Virus record (IMG/VR): IMGVR_UViG_3300045988_104440
Location: 1-25,494 of that record
Source of the DNA: a virus
Lineage: Duplodnaviria; Heunggongvirae; Uroviricota; Caudoviricetes
DNA: 25,494 nucleotides
Direction: 5' to 3' (one strand)
Below the pieces are notes generated by a model that was not told the DNA's origin, did not search any database, and was given only the letters and a program-made list of their open reading frames with translations. Made by a program: the position numbers and the translations under genes. Of the stretch, positions 1,620-20,481 are shown in pieces; the first letter of the stretch is position 1, and each line of letters starts with the position of its first letter.

Positions 1620-2098
1620 TATCCCACCCCCGTCATACCCGTGAATTTAGTCGCCATACTGCCAGCCTTACCGATGAGCGACTCCGCCTGTTTACCGATA
1701 TCGCCATAAAGCGCGGCCAGTGATTCATCAACGCGGGTGAGCGACAGCGTAAAATCAATTTTCCGGGGTGTGCCGTCTGCAAAGAAAATACTCCCTGTTT
1801 CACTCACCCTGCTGATGACATACATGCCGTAAATCATGCCGGTGCCATCCAGCAATGGCCACGCCCGACCTTCCTCTGCCATCAGCCTGAGCGTGGTCAT
1901 CGTCAGCTTGCCGCCGGTCAGTTCGGGATAAAGCACACCGGCCAGCGTGATGTTTTCCTCACCCACACCGAGAAATTGAAAGGCATCCCGTTTGCCGATA
2001 CGGGAATTTGACGGCCAGCGATAATCTGATTCACGCTGCATGGTCTGGTGTGGCAGCGTCTGGCGCATAAAAACAAACATACCTAACGCGAGCATCAT
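1619..2098 (-). CDS. U: Tail protein U (159 aa)
   Basis: ORF between T and D with a 1-nt overlap onto D; length equals P2 gpU. Confidence 0.8.
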   Translation of the reverse strand: MMLALGMFVFMRQTLPHQTMQRESDYRWPSNSRIGKRDAFQFLGVGEENITLAGVLYPELTGGKLTMTTLRLMAEEGRAWPLLDGTGMIYGMYVISRVSETGSIFFADGTPRKIDFTLSLTRVDESLAALYGDIGKQAESLIGKAGSMATKFTGMTGVG

Positions 2099-2112: not shown

Positions 2113-4560
2113 TTAACCGTCATGCATCATGCTGGCACGGGCGCGCGCACGTTTATCCCGCTCGTATTTTTCGAGCGCATCCTGTAACTGGCGGTCAAGC
2201 GGTGTCCCCGGCGCAGTACCGCCCGTCAGGCTGATGTGATATTCGTTTTTACTCTGGTCCACATAAGAGCGGCCAGCCGGTGCCGTGACCGGCTGATAAG
2301 CCTGATAACCTGCATAAGAGCTGGTCGCCGGAATATAACCACCGCTGCCATACGTGGCGGCTTGAGTTCTGGCGGCGGTCTGGTCAAGTGTGCCTGACTC
2401 TTTGTTGATGACGCCGAGTTTTTCCAGTACCCAGTCAATACCGCCGCGCAGTTTGTTGAACGCATTAAGCGGCAGCATCAGCGCGTCAGCCAGTGCCTGT
2501 CCGAACATGACGCCCGTGTCACGGCAACGGTTCAGGGTGTCCTGGGTGGCTTTGACCGGGGCAATCAGGTTTTTAAACCACTGCCACGCGGCCTGTAACT
2601 TTTCACCCAGCCAGTCAAACACCGGCTTAAGTGGCGTGAACAGTTCCCCCACTGGCGCAAATGCTGCTTTCAGCCCTTCAACCACACCGCCAAAGAATGC
2701 GCTGACAGGCTCCCAGTATTTACGGATAAGCAACGCCCCGGCGACAATGGCGGCCAGCACAGCCACAACCGGCCAGCTAATCGCCCCGATGGCCGTCATA
2801 ACAGCACTGCCAACCGTCGTGAAGATTGCCCCCATTGCGCCTGCTGCCGCGATGATGGCATTAATGCCGGTGATAACCGGCCAGGCTACAAGACCAATTG
2901 CACCGATGATGCCAATAAGCGCCAGTGCGCCACCGACAATAAGGCCGATGGTTGACGCCAGTGATTTGTTTTTCTGGATCCAGCCGTCGAGTTTTAACAC
3001 ATACTTTGTGGCCGTCTGCGTGAGATTACGCAGTGCGCCTTCCTGCTGGTCAAACAGGTCAGTCCCCACCGCCTCATAAGCAGACTGAAACTCCTTAAAG
3101 TCACCGCCTAGGTTGTCCTGCATGATATTTACCAGCTCGGCGGTCTTCCCGTCTGAGGCTTTAAACGCAGCGGTCAGTTTGTCCAGCTTTCCGGTTGAGG
3201 CGGCAGTCATCAGCACGGCGGCGGCTGAGCTGGCCTCCTCCCCGAAAATAGTTTTCATGTATTCAGCCTGCTGGGCAGTACCGAGCCGGTTTTTCTCAAA
3301 ACTGGCCTGCATTTCTTTCAGAATGGTAAATATTGGCCGGGTGTTTCCCTTGCTGTCTGAGGTTTTCACTCCAAGCTCTTTGAGTGCATCCCATGCTTTT
3401 CCCGTCGGTGCCTGCAGGCGGCTTAACACGGCACGGCTTCCCGTCCCCGCCATTGAGCCTGTGATTTTTGCATCATGCAGCGCCCCGACCATTGCGGCGG
3501 TTTCTTCAATGCTGACACCGGCATTTTTTGCCACAGGTGCGGCATAGGTCAGCGCATCGCTCATGCCGTCAAAATCGGCGGCGGTTTTGTTCATCGTCAT
3601 GGAGAGAACATCCCCGATATGAGCGACCTTATCGTTTGAAAGCTGAAAGGCGGATTTCATCCCCATCAGCAGGGCGGCGTTTTCTTCCATCGTGCGGCGG
3701 TTCGCCAGCGCCATATTCAGCGTGACCGGCGTTGCCGCCTGAATGGCATCAACATCCCCACCCGCTTTCGCGATGATTATCTGTGCACCGGCCGCATCAT
3801 CCGCCGAGGCGGCGGTATTGTCGCCGAGCTGGCGCGCCTGTTTGCGTAGTGCGGTCATTTCGGCGGAGTCTTTTGCCACTCCGAGCACGGCCTGCAATTC
3901 TGAGTTTTTCTGCGCAAACTCATAACCGGGCATCAGCAACTTAACTCCGGCCATCGTTCCCGCCGCCGCAATCCCCACACCGGCAGCGCCTACTGAGGCC
4001 ATATTTCCGGCCAGTTCCTTTCCGGCCTGATAACGCTGTTTGACTGCGTTAAGTTTTGCCTGTTGCGCACTGACACGCGCCAGCGCGTCGCGCTGACGGT
4101 TAAGCTGTGCGGTGGTTTCACTGATACGGTTTTTCAGTCCCTGCTCATCATGTGCAAGATTGCGGGTATTAATTCCCACAGCGGCCAGTTCCCGCTGCTG
4201 GCGTTTAACGGAATCCGTCAGGCGGTTATATTTCGCCTGTAAGTCCTCCGCCGCTCGCTTTGCGGATTCCAGCACTTTCGCCTGAGCACGGGTCGGACGT
4301 TCGGTGTTTTTAAACTGTGTGGCAAGGGCTTCGGCTTCCTGCCGTGCCTTTTCAAGTGCATGACCAGTCACGGCGAGCTGCGCACTGGTCTTGCGAAATC
4401 CCTCAATACGGGATGCGTGACCGTTCAGCTCGCGCAGTGATTTTTGTGTTTCCCGGATATCCCCCGACAGCGACTTGCTCGCTGTGCGGATGGATTTAAA
4501 CGGGCGGGATGCCTGGTCAACAGCCCTGAGCAATACCTGTAATTTTACATTGTTACTCAT
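2113..4560 (-). CDS. T: Tail tape measure protein T (815 aa)
   Basis: Long ORF with an alanine/glycine-rich hydrophobic central segment and coiled-coil-like N-terminal part, directly downstream of E/E'. Length equals P2 gpT. Confidence 0.85.
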   Translation of the reverse strand: MSNNVKLQVLLRAVDQASRPFKSIRTASKSLSGDIRETQKSLRELNGHASRIEGFRKTSAQLAVTGHALEKARQEAEALATQFKNTERPTRAQAKVLESAKRAAEDLQAKYNRLTDSVKRQQRELAAVGINTRNLAHDEQGLKNRISETTAQLNRQRDALARVSAQQAKLNAVKQRYQAGKELAGNMASVGAAGVGIAAAGTMAGVKLLMPGYEFAQKNSELQAVLGVAKDSAEMTALRKQARQLGDNTAASADDAAGAQIIIAKAGGDVDAIQAATPVTLNMALANRRTMEENAALLMGMKSAFQLSNDKVAHIGDVLSMTMNKTAADFDGMSDALTYAAPVAKNAGVSIEETAAMVGALHDAKITGSMAGTGSRAVLSRLQAPTGKAWDALKELGVKTSDSKGNTRPIFTILKEMQASFEKNRLGTAQQAEYMKTIFGEEASSAAAVLMTAASTGKLDKLTAAFKASDGKTAELVNIMQDNLGGDFKEFQSAYEAVGTDLFDQQEGALRNLTQTATKYVLKLDGWIQKNKSLASTIGLIVGGALALIGIIGAIGLVAWPVITGINAIIAAAGAMGAIFTTVGSAVMTAIGAISWPVVAVLAAIVAGALLIRKYWEPVSAFFGGVVEGLKAAFAPVGELFTPLKPVFDWLGEKLQAAWQWFKNLIAPVKATQDTLNRCRDTGVMFGQALADALMLPLNAFNKLRGGIDWVLEKLGVINKESGTLDQTAARTQAATYGSGGYIPATSSYAGYQAYQPVTAPAGRSYVDQSKNEYHISLTGGTAPGTPLDRQLQDALEKYERDKRARARASMMHDG

Positions 4561-4980
4561 TCGTGTTTCCGCTTCGCCGGAGCGCCTTTTCGCGCCATGT
4601 GATGAGTTCGGTCAGGCTCATGGGATACAGTTCTGATGGCGGCCAGTGAAATATCACTGCCACATCCGCCATCAGGTCATCGACCGAGAGATTTTTCGGA
4701 AACGTCACTGCACCGAGTTCGGCGACAAAAAACCGACCACCTTACCGGCCAGCGCCACAAGGTCAGGCAGTTCCAGCGCGGCGACTTCCTGCTCGGTCAG
4801 CATCGGTGCCGTCATGCGCGGCAGCACTTTAATCAGTGCATCGACTTCGGAGTTCGCGACTGCAGCCAGACTGACACCGCGCAGCGTCCCGGCATTGGGT
4901 TTCATCAGCGTGACCTGTTCGATAACCTGCTCACCACGTTTGACCGGATTGTCCAAGGTAATGACGTTTTCTTTGTTCAT
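4553..4980 (-). CDS. E+E': E+E' fusion protein produced by a programmed -1 frameshift (about 142 aa)
   Basis: Hand translation of the -1 frame from the slippery site gives ...FFVAELGAVTFPKNLSVDDLMADVAVIFHWPPSELYPMSLTELITWREKALRRSGNTNE, stopping at TAA (4553..4555), which overlaps the T start codon (4558..4560). The total length is 143 codons. Confidence 0.65.
4705..4980 (-). CDS. E: Tail assembly chaperone E (91 aa)
   Basis: ORF between FII and T ending GFLSPNSVQ; contains the TTTTTTG slippery site near its 3' end. Confidence 0.8.
   Translation of the reverse strand: MNKENVITLDNPVKRGEQVIEQVTLMKPNAGTLRGVSLAAVANSEVDALIKVLPRMTAPMLTEQEVAALELPDLVALAGKVVGFLSPNSVQ
4726..4732 (-). other. Slippery heptamer T_TTT_TTG for the -1 frameshift in E
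   Basis: On the minus strand the E frame reads GGT TTT TTG; this is an X_XXY_YYZ heptamer at the position expected for the conserved tail-chaperone frameshift. Confidence 0.65.
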
Positions 4981-5036
4981 GGTTTTCTCACTTCTGAATC
5001 GGGGTTAACCGGTCAGCCAGGCTGACCGGATGAAAA

Positions 5037-5555
5037 TCACAGGCCGATATTGCGGCGGTGTTGCTCCAGCCGGTCGACGCCGTTCACCTTCTCAATCATG
5101 TTGATGGTGTCGATTTCGACCAGCTCCTTACCGTCCATCGTCAGCCGGAAATAGGTGCAGACCACGGAGATTTTCGACTCGGTGTCTTCTCCCTGTTTGC
5201 CCTCGCCGGTGTCGATTTCTTTCTGACGTCCACGCATGACCACCTCGACGGCCACCGTTTCGCCGGTATCGTCGCGCTGGTAAGAGCCTGCAAAACGAAT
5301 CGGTACGGCATCCACACCGGTTGCGGCGTAAAGCTCCCAGATAACCGAATCCGGGAAACCACCGAGCGACCACTCCATTGACAGCGCATCGTCATCAAGG
5401 CCGAGGTCTACCGGTGCGCTGCCGTTCATCCCCGCACCGCGATAGTTTTCGAGCTTACGGGTCAGTTTTGGCAGCGTGACGGACTTTGCAACGCCCTGAT
5501 AGCTGTAGCCGTTCAGAAAGACGTTCATTAACTTGAGTTTGCGCGGCATTGCCAT
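5037..5555 (-). CDS. FII: Tail tube protein FII (172 aa)
   Basis: ORF immediately downstream of the sheath gene; length and position equal P2 gpFII. Confidence 0.85.
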   Translation of the reverse strand: MAMPRKLKLMNVFLNGYSYQGVAKSVTLPKLTRKLENYRGAGMNGSAPVDLGLDDDALSMEWSLGGFPDSVIWELYAATGVDAVPIRFAGSYQRDDTGETVAVEVVMRGRQKEIDTGEGKQGEDTESKISVVCTYFRLTMDGKELVEIDTINMIEKVNGVDRLEQHRRNIGL

Positions 5556-6758: not shown

Positions 6759-6881
6759 CCGTTTAACTCCGTGGTTAATGGGTGCAACTATTTTCTGTTG
6801 TGCAGAGCATGAGACGCTATTTGACCTGGCTGGTCAGGGGATGAAACAACAGATAAAGAAAATGCGGGCAATTCGCCCGCC

Positions 6882-6899
6882 TGTCCTGATTTGTACACA
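6882..6899 (-). promoter_or_regulatory. Ogr-type late promoter activator site (TGT-N12-ACA) of the FI operon
   Basis: Exact TGT-cctgatttgtac-ACA dyad 124..141 bp upstream of the FI start codon. The P2 late-promoter consensus TGT-N12-ACA is centred near -55. Confidence 0.45.
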
Positions 6900-7130
6900 C
6901 TCATTTTCCGACTGACTATTTAGATAGCCGAAACGCTATCAAATCTGACAGTCTGCTTTGAGCGAGGAGCGGAAGTTCGTAATTGTTCTCACCGTTAAGG
7001 GTCTAGTACTAACATTACCGTATGTTTATCAACGGGGACTACATCAGGCTAAATTCAGTGTGTCACAACCATTAACAAGATTTTCTGTAGCAATCGATAA
7101 CTACTTAAGTTAAAAATAGAAAACTAATCG

Positions 7131-7162
7131 TGTAGCTATAAATCGCTACAATAGACTCGGAG
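7131..7162 (+). promoter_or_regulatory. Candidate promoter/operator and ribosome-binding site for the cargo operon
   Basis: Perfect 6-bp inverted repeat TGTAGC (7131..7136) / GCTACA (7145..7150) flanking a TATAAAT -10-like element (7137..7143). GGAG (7159..7162) lies 6 nt before the ATG at 7169. Confidence 0.3.
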
Positions 7163-7168
7163 TTTGCA

Positions 7169-8395
7169 ATGTCAGATCAGCGTTTTATAAGTAAGATTCA
7201 GGATACTAGGGTTGATTGTTGGTCAGCTTTAGTTGAATTTAATGTTAAAGACTATCTTGGGCTTGCAGAAAAAGCTTACGTTAATAGAGGTGGTATACGA
7301 CATCAACGCGAAGCTCTTAAAACCACAACAGCGAAACGCATTCGCACTAGGCTCGTCGAGGACTTGAGGCGAGGCGCGGTAATCCCTCCTCTGGTCATTG
7401 GTATAGTCGCTGACAATGACGATTGGCAGACAATTGAAGGTATCTCAGAGTCCGAGCAAGTAAAGCAACTCCTTAAAAAATATTATGAAGAATTGTCGAT
7501 TATTGATGGGATGCAACGCACCACAGCTCTTAAAGAAGCATTAGCTTTAGATGAAAACGTAGCCGATCATGTGATTAGGGTAGAAGCCTGGATTGCGAAA
7601 GGCACAGAGAGTTTAATATATCGAATGCTTGTTTTAAACACTGGGCAGGTACCATGGAACCTGAAACAACAACTAGAGGTTGTTTATGCTCCACTTGTGA
7701 AAACTATTAGCCAAAAAGTCAACTTTCGTAGGCTTCTCTCTGCATCGGATAGACGATGGCAAGGAGGGGAGTTTAAAACATACTCGTTGATTGAGTCTTA
7801 TATAGCTTTTGGATTGCGTCGAACTGAGGTCGATACTCAAGAGAGTCTAGCCGATGAGTTTTCAAGGCTAGATATCGCAGAAGCGCTCACCAATAAAAAA
7901 TATGACCATTATTTTTATCGTGTCGTGCAAATGTTAGTTAATTTCGATATTGCGCTATCGATATATAATGAAGTGCAGAATATCGATATTGCAGACCCTT
8001 CTGAGGGTTCCGATAGTCTAGAGGTAGGAATAAAAGCCAGAAAATTAGTAAGAGGCCGAAATATTTTTGATACTCAAGCAGCGCGAGTTGGTTTTATCGT
8101 TGCTTGTGCAGTCAGCATCCTTGGCAGAGTTGGCATGGACAAGGAAGAAGAAGTCAGTGAAGAGAGATGTGCCTTACTAGAGGAATCTTGTGCTGCTCTT
8201 GTTAAAAGGATTACCGCCTTAAATAGAGAAAATTTAGAAGAATTTTTATCGCTAGATGTTTTAGCTGAAAAATTGTCCCGGAGACCGAGTTCAGCAGTTG
8301 GTAGATGGGAGCGGTCATTCTTTGAGGCTGCGTTCCGAGTATTAGTAGAAGAAAACTTTAATATACCCAACATGGAGCCATGCTGGCGGGCATAA
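7169..8395 (+). CDS. Hypothetical protein (408 aa), candidate ParB/DndB-like (DGQHR-type) protein; cargo gene 1
   Basis: Complete ORF with a GGAG ribosome-binding site. HQRE (aa 44-47) followed about 65 aa later by IIDGMQRTTAL (7504..7518 encodes DGMQR), resembling the QR...DGQ(Q/H)R signature of ParB/Srx-fold DndB/DUF262-like proteins. AT-rich, on the strand opposite to the late genes. Confidence 0.6.
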   Translation: MSDQRFISKIQDTRVDCWSALVEFNVKDYLGLAEKAYVNRGGIRHQREALKTTTAKRIRTRLVEDLRRGAVIPPLVIGIVADNDDWQTIEGISESEQVKQLLKKYYEELSIIDGMQRTTALKEALALDENVADHVIRVEAWIAKGTESLIYRMLVLNTGQVPWNLKQQLEVVYAPLVKTISQKVNFRRLLSASDRRWQGGEFKTYSLIESYIAFGLRRTEVDTQESLADEFSRLDIAEALTNKKYDHYFYRVVQMLVNFDIALSIYNEVQNIDIADPSEGSDSLEVGIKARKLVRGRNIFDTQAARVGFIVACAVSILGRVGMDKEEEVSEERCALLEESCAALVKRITALNRENLEEFLSLDVLAEKLSRRPSSAVGRWERSFFEAAFRVLVEENFNIPNMEPCWRA

Positions 8396-8396
8396 T

Positions 8397-9491
8397 ATGT
8401 CTAGAAATAAAATAGAAATGTCGACGGACATTTTTCAAAAAATACATGATTCTGCATCTGCTCAGGACTCTACGTACATAGCCGATAATGAAAAAAGATG
8501 GCTTGCTCGTAAAGATAACGAGGATTTAAACCTTATGATTAATGCAGAGGTTAACGTTCTTATTTTGGGGGCGAAGACGTTCGCCGTCTCTATTAAGAAT
8601 GGTTCTGATAACTACTTCTGTTTTAGCGGTTTAGATATCCCCGAACAACTTCCCGCCAGTCTCACTGAGATTGAGCCCACGCCTGGCATCTTTTCATGCG
8701 TTGTGTTCACCGTCAATCTCCCAGCATTAGCTACAGCGGCTAAGGCTAGAGACATTTTAGAACAGCAATACCTGGGGCAGGAAGGTTACGTCGGGCATGA
8801 ACTTAACGAGATCGCTCCACTCTTTCCAAAACTATACTTTGTTAAGGCTAACGAAAATATAAGCACTACTTTTTTAAATAATTTAGAGCGTGTAGCTGGT
8901 GCCTATATTGCTGCAGGATACGTTAGCCACCCTTTAGAGGTTAATGATAATTTAAAGTTGCGACTACTGTCTCTATTTGAAGTTGGAGCAGAAACCATAC
9001 CGTTTCGTCTACCTCTGCAGGGTCTATTATCTTATAATTGGTCATCGTTATTTTTGGATCTTTATCGATGCTTAGAGCAGTTATATACCGCGCAAAAGTT
9101 GAAAAATTTAGTCACTAAACTCCCATACAAAGGTACTTTGGCAGATCTCGCATATTTACTGGAAGATGAATTGTCATGGAGACCAAAAGAGCAGGATGCA
9201 TTAGCTAGTATACTGGCATGTTCAACTGAAAACACACGTTCGAAAATTCTATCTGCATTCAAACTCAACGTGCCCGAGTTAACCGAGTACTCGCCAAGCA
9301 AGTGCGCAAGTAATATATATAAGCTGAGGAATTCTCATGTTCATTTTCGCCCAGCAATGAAAGCAGAAAATAAACCCACCGAACAGTGGAATGAAATTTT
9401 GATAGCGATGTGTGATGCCGTTGATGACGTTTATGAAGCTCTCGGTGCTGAATTCTTAATAGATAGGTCAAACTTAGAGTCGGTCAGGTAA
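8397..9491 (+). CDS. Hypothetical protein (364 aa), unknown family; cargo gene 2
   Basis: Complete ORF starting 1 nt after the stop of cargo gene 1 (TAA-a-ATG), implying translational coupling. No motif I can assign confidently; a C-terminal R-x4-H (LRNSHVH, 9324..9344) is noted. Confidence 0.55.
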   Translation: MSRNKIEMSTDIFQKIHDSASAQDSTYIADNEKRWLARKDNEDLNLMINAEVNVLILGAKTFAVSIKNGSDNYFCFSGLDIPEQLPASLTEIEPTPGIFSCVVFTVNLPALATAAKARDILEQQYLGQEGYVGHELNEIAPLFPKLYFVKANENISTTFLNNLERVAGAYIAAGYVSHPLEVNDNLKLRLLSLFEVGAETIPFRLPLQGLLSYNWSSLFLDLYRCLEQLYTAQKLKNLVTKLPYKGTLADLAYLLEDELSWRPKEQDALASILACSTENTRSKILSAFKLNVPELTEYSPSKCASNIYKLRNSHVHFRPAMKAENKPTEQWNEILIAMCDAVDDVYEALGAEFLIDRSNLESVR

Positions 9492-9602
9492 TATGCATGA
9501 TTAAAATTGTCATGCGTAACCTAAGCTTATAATTTGTCTATCATATTCATCCTAGATAGATGACTCTATGCTCATCCCCCAGATGAATATATTACAAACC
9601 TT

Positions 9603-9625
9603 AAAAAGCCGTCCTTTAGGACGGC
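9603..9625 (-). terminator. Rho-independent terminator between the convergent cargo operon and gene G
   Basis: Hairpin GCCGTCC-ttta-GGACGGC (9608..9625) preceded on the plus strand by AAAAA (9603..9607), which is a U-tract for minus-strand transcripts. Only a weak T-run follows on the plus strand. Confidence 0.5.
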
Positions 9626-9924
9626 TGTAAACTCTATATTAAACTGGCTCTTACTTTTGCGAACACTGACTTCCACTTTTTATACAATGAAGGTCGAACA
9701 ATAAGAAAAAATCTCCGCTTATATTAACCAAAAGCATCTATTTGTTATCCACGTAATATCTTGCGCGATATAAACATACCAGCAGGTTTCTTAGCATTGA
9801 TCTGCTCCCCATTGATTAAAACAGCGTGATGTTTGCTATGTCCGTTCTTGGCACAGAGCGGACTGTCAAATTAGGCTTTACTCTGTGCCATAGATATGTA
9901 AGCTCCCACCAGAGCTCATACAAC

Positions 9925-15194: not shown

Positions 15195-15647
15195 CTAACG
15201 GTCGAGGTGCGCCAGAATAATCTCTTCAATCATCTGCACATCCTCACCGGTAAAGCCGAGCAGGGGACGCGCCGGATAATCAATTTTCTTACCGTCTTTC
15301 CGGGTTTCTTCCGACAGACCGAACTGATGCACACTGGCGATTTTCGGCGACTTCCCGCCGTAAAATTCCATTGATGCCTGTTCCGGGCTGGCGCGGATAT
15401 GCAAAAAACGACTGGTGATAAGTTTCGCAAACATTTTTCGCTTAACACGACCAGTCTTTTTTCTGGCGCTCTGCTGCTGGCGTGGCGCGTAGGGTGTGCC
15501 GTCCGGGGCTTTCTGAGCCATCACCCGACGCTGCTGACTCTGCCGCAGACGTTTCGCCAGTTCGGCGCTCAGTCGCCGACGCCCTGACGGTGACAGCGAT
15601 TCAGTCAGTCCGGTCAGCCGGTCTTCAAAACGCTTAAACTCATTCAT
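15195..15647 (-). CDS. S: Tail completion protein S (150 aa)
   Basis: Position after R with an 8-nt overlap; length equals P2 gpS. Confidence 0.8.
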   Translation of the reverse strand: MNEFKRFEDRLTGLTESLSPSGRRRLSAELAKRLRQSQQRRVMAQKAPDGTPYAPRQQQSARKKTGRVKRKMFAKLITSRFLHIRASPEQASMEFYGGKSPKIASVHQFGLSEETRKDGKKIDYPARPLLGFTGEDVQMIEEIILAHLDR

Positions 15648-19407: not shown

Positions 19408-20481
19408 TTACGCTCCCGGCTCTGCGGTCGCTTTAGCCGGTGTGGAGAAATCACCGACCTTAATTTTTTCCACCAGACAACCGGCGGCGTAGTCTTCCAC
19501 CACGTAATCAATGTTCATTGACTCGTAGTTCTCCACGCGGTCGAGTTTCGGGTTTTCCTCAATCACGCGGCGATGGCTGTCATCCATGTAGTAGATGGAC
19601 AGGTTTTCCAGCTTCGTGATGAGCATCGCATCCGCCGGGAAGTACGGGACGCGTACCGCTGGCAGGTTGCCGATGCGTTTCTGGCTGATGATGACGTCAG
19701 CGGCCAGCATCTCGCTGTTGTCCTGCTCCTTGTTAACGATGGGGAAATACTTGTCCGCCAGTAGCTGACGCCCCACAATCACCACAAGGTCAGGGTCTTC
19801 CTGATACCACGGCTCAATCAGGTTGTTGGTCGCATCCATCACCAGTGCATCGAGGCTGGCATAATCACCGCCCTTACCCACGCGGATGACCTCAGAGGTC
19901 GTGTGACCTTCCTCGTCAGTAACCTTGCTCATCACGCGCGCCGGGGCTTCATTGCGGTATTTCTGCAGCCAGCCGACCGCCACATCCTGCAGCATCGGGT
20001 GACTGCTGCGGTCAGAGGTTTCGGCACGCCTCACGCCGTTAAAACCGGCCATGATTAAATCAAGGGACTGGCGTTTGATAATGGCGTTACGGACACGGAG
20101 CTGGAAATCCTGATAACGCGCCCACAGGTCCAGCGTTTTGTAGCGGATATAAAAATCGAAGTTAATCTGGTCGCATTCGTACTTACTGGACGCCAGCTTC
20201 GAGAAGTCCTTCGGCTGACGTTCGGTGCCACCGGCGGTGTCGGTGGTGCTGGCGATGGAGCCGGTGACACCAATACCAATTTTTTCCCCTTTCATTTCGC
20301 TGACCGGCACAATGTTGATGCGGGTCAGAAAGTCAGAGGACTCCTGCATGGTGTTCATCAGGGTCTGGGTGACCGACGGTTCAACGGTGAATTTTTTCGA
20401 CACATCACCGGCGTCGATGCCGTTCAGTTCGGCAACACGGGACAGGTAGGCATTAAATTTAAAGCGGGTTTCCTGGCGCAT
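19408..20481 (-). CDS. N: Major capsid protein N (357 aa)
   Basis: Position after scaffold gene O; length equals P2 gpN. Confidence 0.85.
   Translation of the reverse strand: MRQETRFKFNAYLSRVAELNGIDAGDVSKKFTVEPSVTQTLMNTMQESSDFLTRINIVPVSEMKGEKIGIGVTGSIASTTDTAGGTERQPKDFSKLASSKYECDQINFDFYIRYKTLDLWARYQDFQLRVRNAIIKRQSLDLIMAGFNGVRRAETSDRSSHPMLQDVAVGWLQKYRNEAPARVMSKVTDEEGHTTSEVIRVGKGGDYASLDALVMDATNNLIEPWYQEDPDLVVIVGRQLLADKYFPIVNKEQDNSEMLAADVIISQKRIGNLPAVRVPYFPADAMLITKLENLSIYYMDDSHRRVIEENPKLDRVENYESMNIDYVVEDYAAGCLVEKIKVGDFSTPAKATAEPGA

Follow-up and report, generated by a model that had tools for sequence, protein, structure and literature searches.

How does a phage of the P2 kind obtain two tail assembly proteins when just one start codon is used, and does the DNA analysed here carry the signal for doing so? 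The stretch in question is the Caudoviricetes virus record IMGVR_UViG_3300045988_104440 of IMG/VR, positions 1 to 25,494, and by "the window" we mean all 25,494 nucleotides (nt) of it. An earlier note, made from the letters alone, had proposed that a programmed −1 ribosomal frameshift in gene E produces a fusion, gpE+E′, whose reading frame runs into the start of the tape measure gene T. We re-derived the features concerned by direct reading of the minus strand and by recomputation. The locus is very probably the E/E+E′ recoding site known from P2, in a phage or prophage of the P2-like (Peduovirus) group, with the fusion made by −1 ribosomal frameshift. Its parts, with protein lengths in amino acids (aa), are the following.

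4705..4980, minus strand: gene E, tail assembly chaperone of 91 aa, read by standard 0-frame decoding (list of open reading frames (ORFs), translation, Pfam PF10109)
4726..4732, minus strand: slippery heptamer T_TTT_TTG, in the register of E, adjoined by the P2 misc_feature and conserved in homologues
4705..4741, minus strand: zone of 37 nt free of stops in the 0 frame (E) and in the −1 frame (E′) alike (frame recomputation)
4553..4726, minus strand: E′ segment, 57 sense codons plus TAA (4555..4553), read in the −1 frame after the slip (Pfam PF06528, P2 identity)

Gene E starts with an ATG at 4980 and ends with a TGA at 4707..4705. Across the heptamer its 0-frame codons are GGT TTT TTG, 4731 being a first codon base, which gives the correct X_XXY_YYZ phasing; the TTG is the seventh codon ahead of the TGA, and six sense codons intervene. 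The earlier note had placed T_TTT_TTG at 4726..4732, seven codons before the E stop, and both the sequence reading and the recomputation bear this out. The −1 frame is open from 4741, that is, for 37 nt back into E. Since the frames of E and E′ are both open solely in 4705..4741, this is the sole place where a shift can join them. After the slip, 57 sense codons remain, in agreement with the figure of about 58 given earlier, which is reached when the stop is included. The fusion coding sequence (CDS), join(4980..4726, 4726..4553), encodes a gpE+E′ of 142 aa, which has its 85 N-terminal residues in common with gpE.

A megablast search with 4400..5150 matched 82 phage records, all of them P2-like (Peduovirus), the best at 99.9% identity and P2 itself at 98.4%. 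Over 451 aligned nt around the site, identity with P2 (AF063097) is 99%: the eight substitutions all fall in the 5′ part of E, and the sequence from the heptamer through the T start is fully identical. In the P2 gpE/gpE+E′ locus (AF063097 / NC_001895) the heptamer, the product lengths of 91 and 142 aa, the overlap of 37 nt and the junction with T, ATGAGTAA, are as in the window; apart from the substitutions in E, the window differs in the cargo that it has where P2 has Z/fun, a difference that has no bearing on the frameshift. Record AF063097 annotates gpE (91 aa), a misc_feature 'site of -1 translational frameshift' adjoining the heptamer, and gpE+E′ as a joined CDS that 'shares amino terminus with gpE; -1 frameshift; essential tail protein'.

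The proteins tell the same story. gpE is 98.8% identical to P2 gpE and E′ 100% identical to P2 E′; when the two fusions are compared, as the earlier note had suggested, they differ in one residue (N29 here, S29 in P2), junction convention aside. The 0-frame product matches Pfam PF10109, Phage_TAC_7 (2.6e-12, 47 bits against a cut-off of 25), and the −1 part matches PF06528, Phage_P2_GpE, over fusion residues 104-139 (1.2e-21, 76.3 bits against a cut-off of 23). The fusion had no match in NCBIfam, and a PDB sequence search returned no solved-structure relative at an expectation value (E) <= 1.

In P2, one start serves for both E (91 aa) and E+E′ (142 aa), the latter through a −1 frameshift at TTTTTTG (PMC3091744; PMC3931495), and there too the E′ frame reaches 37 nt back into E (PMC3931495). 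As the source for the site, both papers cite Christie et al. 2002 (Christie, Temple, Bartlett, Goodwin; J Bacteriol 184:6522). The citing papers ascribe to that study that in P2 the fusion is produced in a fixed proportion and that plaque formation depends on E′; a further reference in both is Xu, Hendrix and Duda 2004. Production of the fusion and essentiality of E′ are taken over from this P2 literature and, for the present locus, are predictions. Near-identity with P2, the P2 annotation and the literature on the same site together uphold the claim of a programmed −1 frameshift giving E+E′. The feature is already known and ordinary for the P2 phage family, and is annotated in the P2 reference genome.

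Homologous loci were collected by a scan with one genome per species, which gave 79 loci at 36-100% identity in Enterobacterales, Burkholderiales, Sphingomonadales and other groups. Both halves were detected in 78 of these, and 77 of the 78 have E′ in the −1 frame and, within the overlap, TTTTTTG or TTTTTTA in register. In locus L079, whose E is too divergent for tblastn, CCT TTT TTG is followed by E′ in the −1 frame. The sole homologue without the heptamer, L058 (Enterobacter sp. EA-1, CP025776.1, ~1720..1740), combines a T5 run with another break of the frame farther upstream in E, and is either a decaying prophage copy or a long-read assembly with homopolymer errors. When the P2 record is added to the 79 scan loci, 79 of 80 conform, with L058 as the sole exception; loss of the site or closure of the −1 frame in relatives, which the earlier note had named as the outcomes that would tell against it, was not the pattern found.

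Statistics on the heptamer were drawn from 78 distinct homologous contexts, whose proteins range in identity from about 40% to 100%. All 78 have the T6 run unaltered, with G as the seventh base in 70 cases and A in 8. Just before the run stands the codon GGT, AGT, GAT, TAT, AAT or CCT, so that the amino acid changes while the third-base T stays constant. Elsewhere in the same genes, Phe is encoded by TTT in 45% of cases and Leu by TTR in 7%, and the third base is T in 15%; if amino acids alone were selected, codon usage leads one to expect the heptamer in ~0.5% of sequences. Its invariance against that expectation speaks directly for selection acting on the nucleotides as such, and in the homologue set purifying selection on a slippery heptamer can be seen cleanly at the nucleotide level. 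The arrangement is maintained down to ~40% identity in alpha-, beta- and gammaproteobacterial prophages. In published comparisons, the E/E+E′ gene arrangement is alike in Burkholderia KS5, KS14 and KL3 and in Stenotrophomonas Smp131, with TTTTTTG conserved at 49-59% identity in the Burkholderia P2-like phages, where no hairpin lies downstream (PMC3091744), whereas the more distant P2-like Smp131 and Xanthomonas prophages have T7G or T7C (PMC3931495) against the canonical T6G of the window.

The genes on either side of E/E′ place the site in its tail gene context.

2113..4560, minus strand: gene T, tape measure protein of 815 aa (Pfam PF10145, PhageMin_Tail, 2.4e-45; P2 gpT annotation)
5037..5555, minus strand: gene FII, tail tube protein, directly upstream of E (Pfam PF04985, Phage_tube, 2.3e-60; P2 gpFII annotation)

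The order FII (tube), E/E′ (chaperone), T (tape measure) is canonical. The E′ frame ends in 8 nt, ATGAGTAA, that include the T ATG (4560..4558) and make up the overlap of the two ORFs. The earlier note had described the E′ stop as overlapping the T start codon; the ORFs do overlap, whereas the two codons share no bases, the TAA lying 2 nt past the ATG. Judged by its sequence, the locus belongs with the P2-type gpE/gpE+E′ pairs, having both protein families, an in-register heptamer, the position between FII and T, and no start of its own for E′.

On the proposed mechanism, most ribosomes would begin E at its ATG (4980) and stop at the TGA (4707..4705), the product being gpE, the chaperone of 91 aa. 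A minority would slip back by one base on U_UUU_UUG (4732..4726) with tRNA-Phe (UUU) and tRNA-Leu (UUG) in place; the slipped tRNAs would re-pair in the −1 frame, and translation would proceed through 57 further codons to the TAA at 4555..4553, giving the 142-aa gpE+E′. The roles of the two products can be sketched by analogy with lambda gpG/gpGT. The E part of both would coat the tape measure protein T, the E′ extension may recruit the tube subunit, and the ratio of gpE to gpE+E′, which would need to be fixed in tail assembly, would be set by the frequency of the slip. In lambda G/GT, it is the short product that binds the tape measure, the extension having the tube/major tail protein as its partner (PMC5009743).

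How far does the likeness to lambda G/GT, also drawn in the earlier note, extend? It holds for position and mechanism and does not extend to sequence homology. Like lambda gpG/gpGT and the frameshift conserved among tailed phages with dsDNA genomes (Levin et al. 1993; Xu, Hendrix, Duda 2004), the present locus has two overlapping ORFs between the tail/tube and tape measure genes, directly ahead of the latter; a conserved slippery sequence joins them, and the ratio-setting logic is the same (PMC5009743; PMC3091744). The lambda pair differs in that no sequence homology to P2-type E/E′ is detectable: a full Pfam-A scan (E <= 0.01) of the 91-aa E and the 142-aa fusion found just PF10109 and PF06528, and no lambda gpG/gpT homology. 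The heptamer is T_TTT_TTG here and G_GGA_AAG in lambda, and the phage here is contractile-tailed, unlike the siphovirus lambda. The site thus appears to function like lambda G/GT while lying outside the lambda G/GT sequence families.

We found no evidence that speaks against a P2-type frameshift; two points that weigh on that side are limits only. One is that the junction differs by source. Tandem ribosomal slippage gives GFL-V-AELG, whereas the P2 GenBank join gives GFL-F-AELG: tandem slippage on T_TTT_TTG predicts V at residue 86 and the junction peptide ...GKVVGFLVAELGAVTFPK, and the deposited P2 gpE+E′ has F at that residue. The P2 join (19430..19685, 19685..19857) sets the shift one base after the heptamer G, position 19685 (L001 1926) corresponding to 4725..4726 of the window. 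Slippage in the P site only, or a U7 transcript, predicts ...GFFVAELG....

The other limit is that folding, alignment consensus and covariation revealed no conserved stimulatory element for the frameshift. The 86 nt downstream of the heptamer fold with −27 kcal/mol (z = −0.99), and RNAalifold applied to 22 diverse homologues returned 2 pairs only, with a consensus energy of −0.16 kcal/mol; a downstream stimulatory structure was rejected on account of this weak z score and empty consensus, in agreement with PMC3091744. A mini-hairpin, CGCCG/CGGUG, 2 nt past the heptamer was likewise set aside: 69% of cells are paired against 68.5% in shuffles, covariation is absent, and the pairing reflects the AE[FL]G codons. 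Further on, a hairpin CAGUG-AUAUUU-CACUG at 4644..4659 (minus strand) lies in the E′ coding region, 66 nt beyond the end of the heptamer (67-82). The 32-nt segment that contains it has a mean z of −1.58 across homologues, 53% of which have z < −1.5. It was rejected as an element because of non-compensatory substitutions, its distance and its overlap with the conserved V-I-F-H-W codons, and is taken to be a by-product of coding. Upstream, a Shine-Dalgarno (SD)-like AAGGTGG (4743..4737) stands 4 nt before the heptamer; it occurs in the Enterobacterales homologues, as Lys-Val codons, and is absent in distant ones. This spacing is too short for a −1 stimulator of the dnaX type. In P2, an efficiency of about 10% is said to be given in the 2002 abstract of Christie and colleagues, reportedly along with a complementation test. 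With no stimulatory element, the reported efficiency has to derive from the heptamer alone.

Could the fusion, or E′ itself, arise in some other way? RNA polymerase might add an extra U at the T6 run, in which case U7 mRNAs would be translated normally into E+E′ with the junction GFF-V. The site does consist of a homopolymer run, and polymerase slippage would need that run to be invariant just as much. Bacterial RNA polymerase, however, usually needs runs of ~7-9 or more, for which T6 is short. The T7G and T7C of the more distant P2-like phages (PMC3931495) speak for such a model, and so does an 8-bp hairpin (4 G-C + 4 G-U) at 4732..4753 (minus strand), common in sequence to the window and P2. 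It abuts the 5′ side of the T6 run (−10.5 kcal/mol, z = −2.15), was flagged by a terminator scan and resembles a weak terminator or pause signal. Against this, the hairpin is neither conserved (L004, z = +0.27; L071, z = +1.47; mean z = −0.32 over 77 homologues) nor covarying, its covariation score being matched by 130 of 500 shuffles, and for both reasons it was rejected as a family-wide element. Two properties of the 78 contexts also argue against the polymerase: the run is always phased X_XXY_YYZ, and the seventh base is always a purine, which makes a Leu UUR codon able to re-pair on UUU. Published accounts describe a translational frameshift (PMC3091744; PMC3931495). We consider transcriptional slippage improbable.

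Slimmer still is the chance that E′ is an independent gene of 51 aa, read from a GTG at 4708 without any recoding, although the ORF list does give a 51-aa GTG ORF at 4553..4708 (minus strand) and in E. coli genomes RefSeq/PGAP gives E′ a CDS of its own, 'GpE family phage tail protein'. The GTG is found in 3 of 78 distinct homologues; GTA stands there in 44, and CTG, ATA, TTA, GGC and others in the rest. Upstream of it the anti-SD energy is −2.3 kcal/mol, which is background level (median −2.0). Initiation at GTG 4708 was rejected for this poor conservation and background energy. A separate gene does not require the heptamer to be invariant at synonymous sites, and no E′ initiation site is reported in the literature (PMC3931495). 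There is also the null view that an incidental T run happens to stand before an incidentally open −1 frame, with no function. The heptamer by itself is indeed not unusual in the window: TTTTTTG is not over-represented (9 seen against 6.7 ± 2.5 in shuffles), and there are 28 in-register XXXYYYZ heptamers among 7487 codon positions, 3.1% of which have a −1 frame open for >= 57 codons. The combination is far beyond chance, given the position of the heptamer within the 37-nt overlap, the match of the −1 product to the curated family PF06528 at 1.2e-21 and the invariance in 78 of 78 contexts. With the arrangement also conserved to ~40% identity across proteobacterial prophages, chance juxtaposition is effectively refuted and has next to no probability left. 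A −1 ribosomal frameshift of the P2 type is the reading that we retain.

The window holds a second in-register T_TTT_TTG, at 15402..15408 (minus strand), within a 150-aa ORF (15195..15647), after which the −1 frame is open for 37 codons. By gene order only, this ORF is a tail gene standing where P2 has gene S; the heptamer in it is probably incidental. Antisense to E lies a 129-aa ORF with an ATG start at 4636..5025 (plus strand), which is longer than E and which a naive longest-ORF choice preferred over it. This shadow ORF does not merit annotation as a gene.

Elsewhere in the window, two plus-strand genes, 7169..8395 (408 aa) and 8397..9491 (364 aa), stand between the sheath gene FI and the tail-fibre assembly gene G, flanked by 6759..7168 and 9492..9924, at the position of P2 Z/fun. 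PADLOC assigned DzbA at 2.8e-50 over the full length and, weakly, DzbB (0.0012); Pfam gave GmrSD_N and DndB at sub-threshold level only, and NCBIfam had no match to the pair. The block has about 40% GC (guanine plus cytosine) compared with about 55% in the tail genes. In megablast it had no match beyond the flanks in 50,697 phage records, and none in 5,426 complete E. coli genomes. The pair is a candidate Dazbog-like defence cargo in the variable hotspot of P2, the identity of the second gene being uncertain.

What does the site mean for the family? As a discovery it is worth little, being a textbook-level site that was characterised experimentally in P2 in 2002; its practical value lies in annotation. 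In RefSeq/PGAP annotation the locus becomes two genes, one called 'phage tail assembly protein' and the other, of 51 aa, 'GpE family phage tail protein' (4553..4708; L081 454..609). Because the region has matches in 1749 of 5426 complete E. coli genomes, about a third, this split mis-annotation of the fusion is likely to be very widespread.

The frameshift may also bear on the supply of the tape measure protein. In the 78 homologous contexts, the E′ stop and T start overlap by 8 nt in 54 and by 4 nt in 9 (63 of 78 together). The anti-SD energy of T is −3.5 kcal/mol, a weak SD compared with −8 to −13 for FII, D and U (background median −2.0), and the TGA of E lies 145 nt upstream of the T ATG. 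With a weak SD, an ATG embedded in the end of E′ and a distant E stop, T might depend on frameshifted ribosomes. We suggest, tentatively and at fairly low probability, that the frameshift also meters T, which would then be translated mainly through termination-reinitiation by the minority of ribosomes that have shifted into E′. If true, such coupling would tie the amounts of T and E+E′ together.

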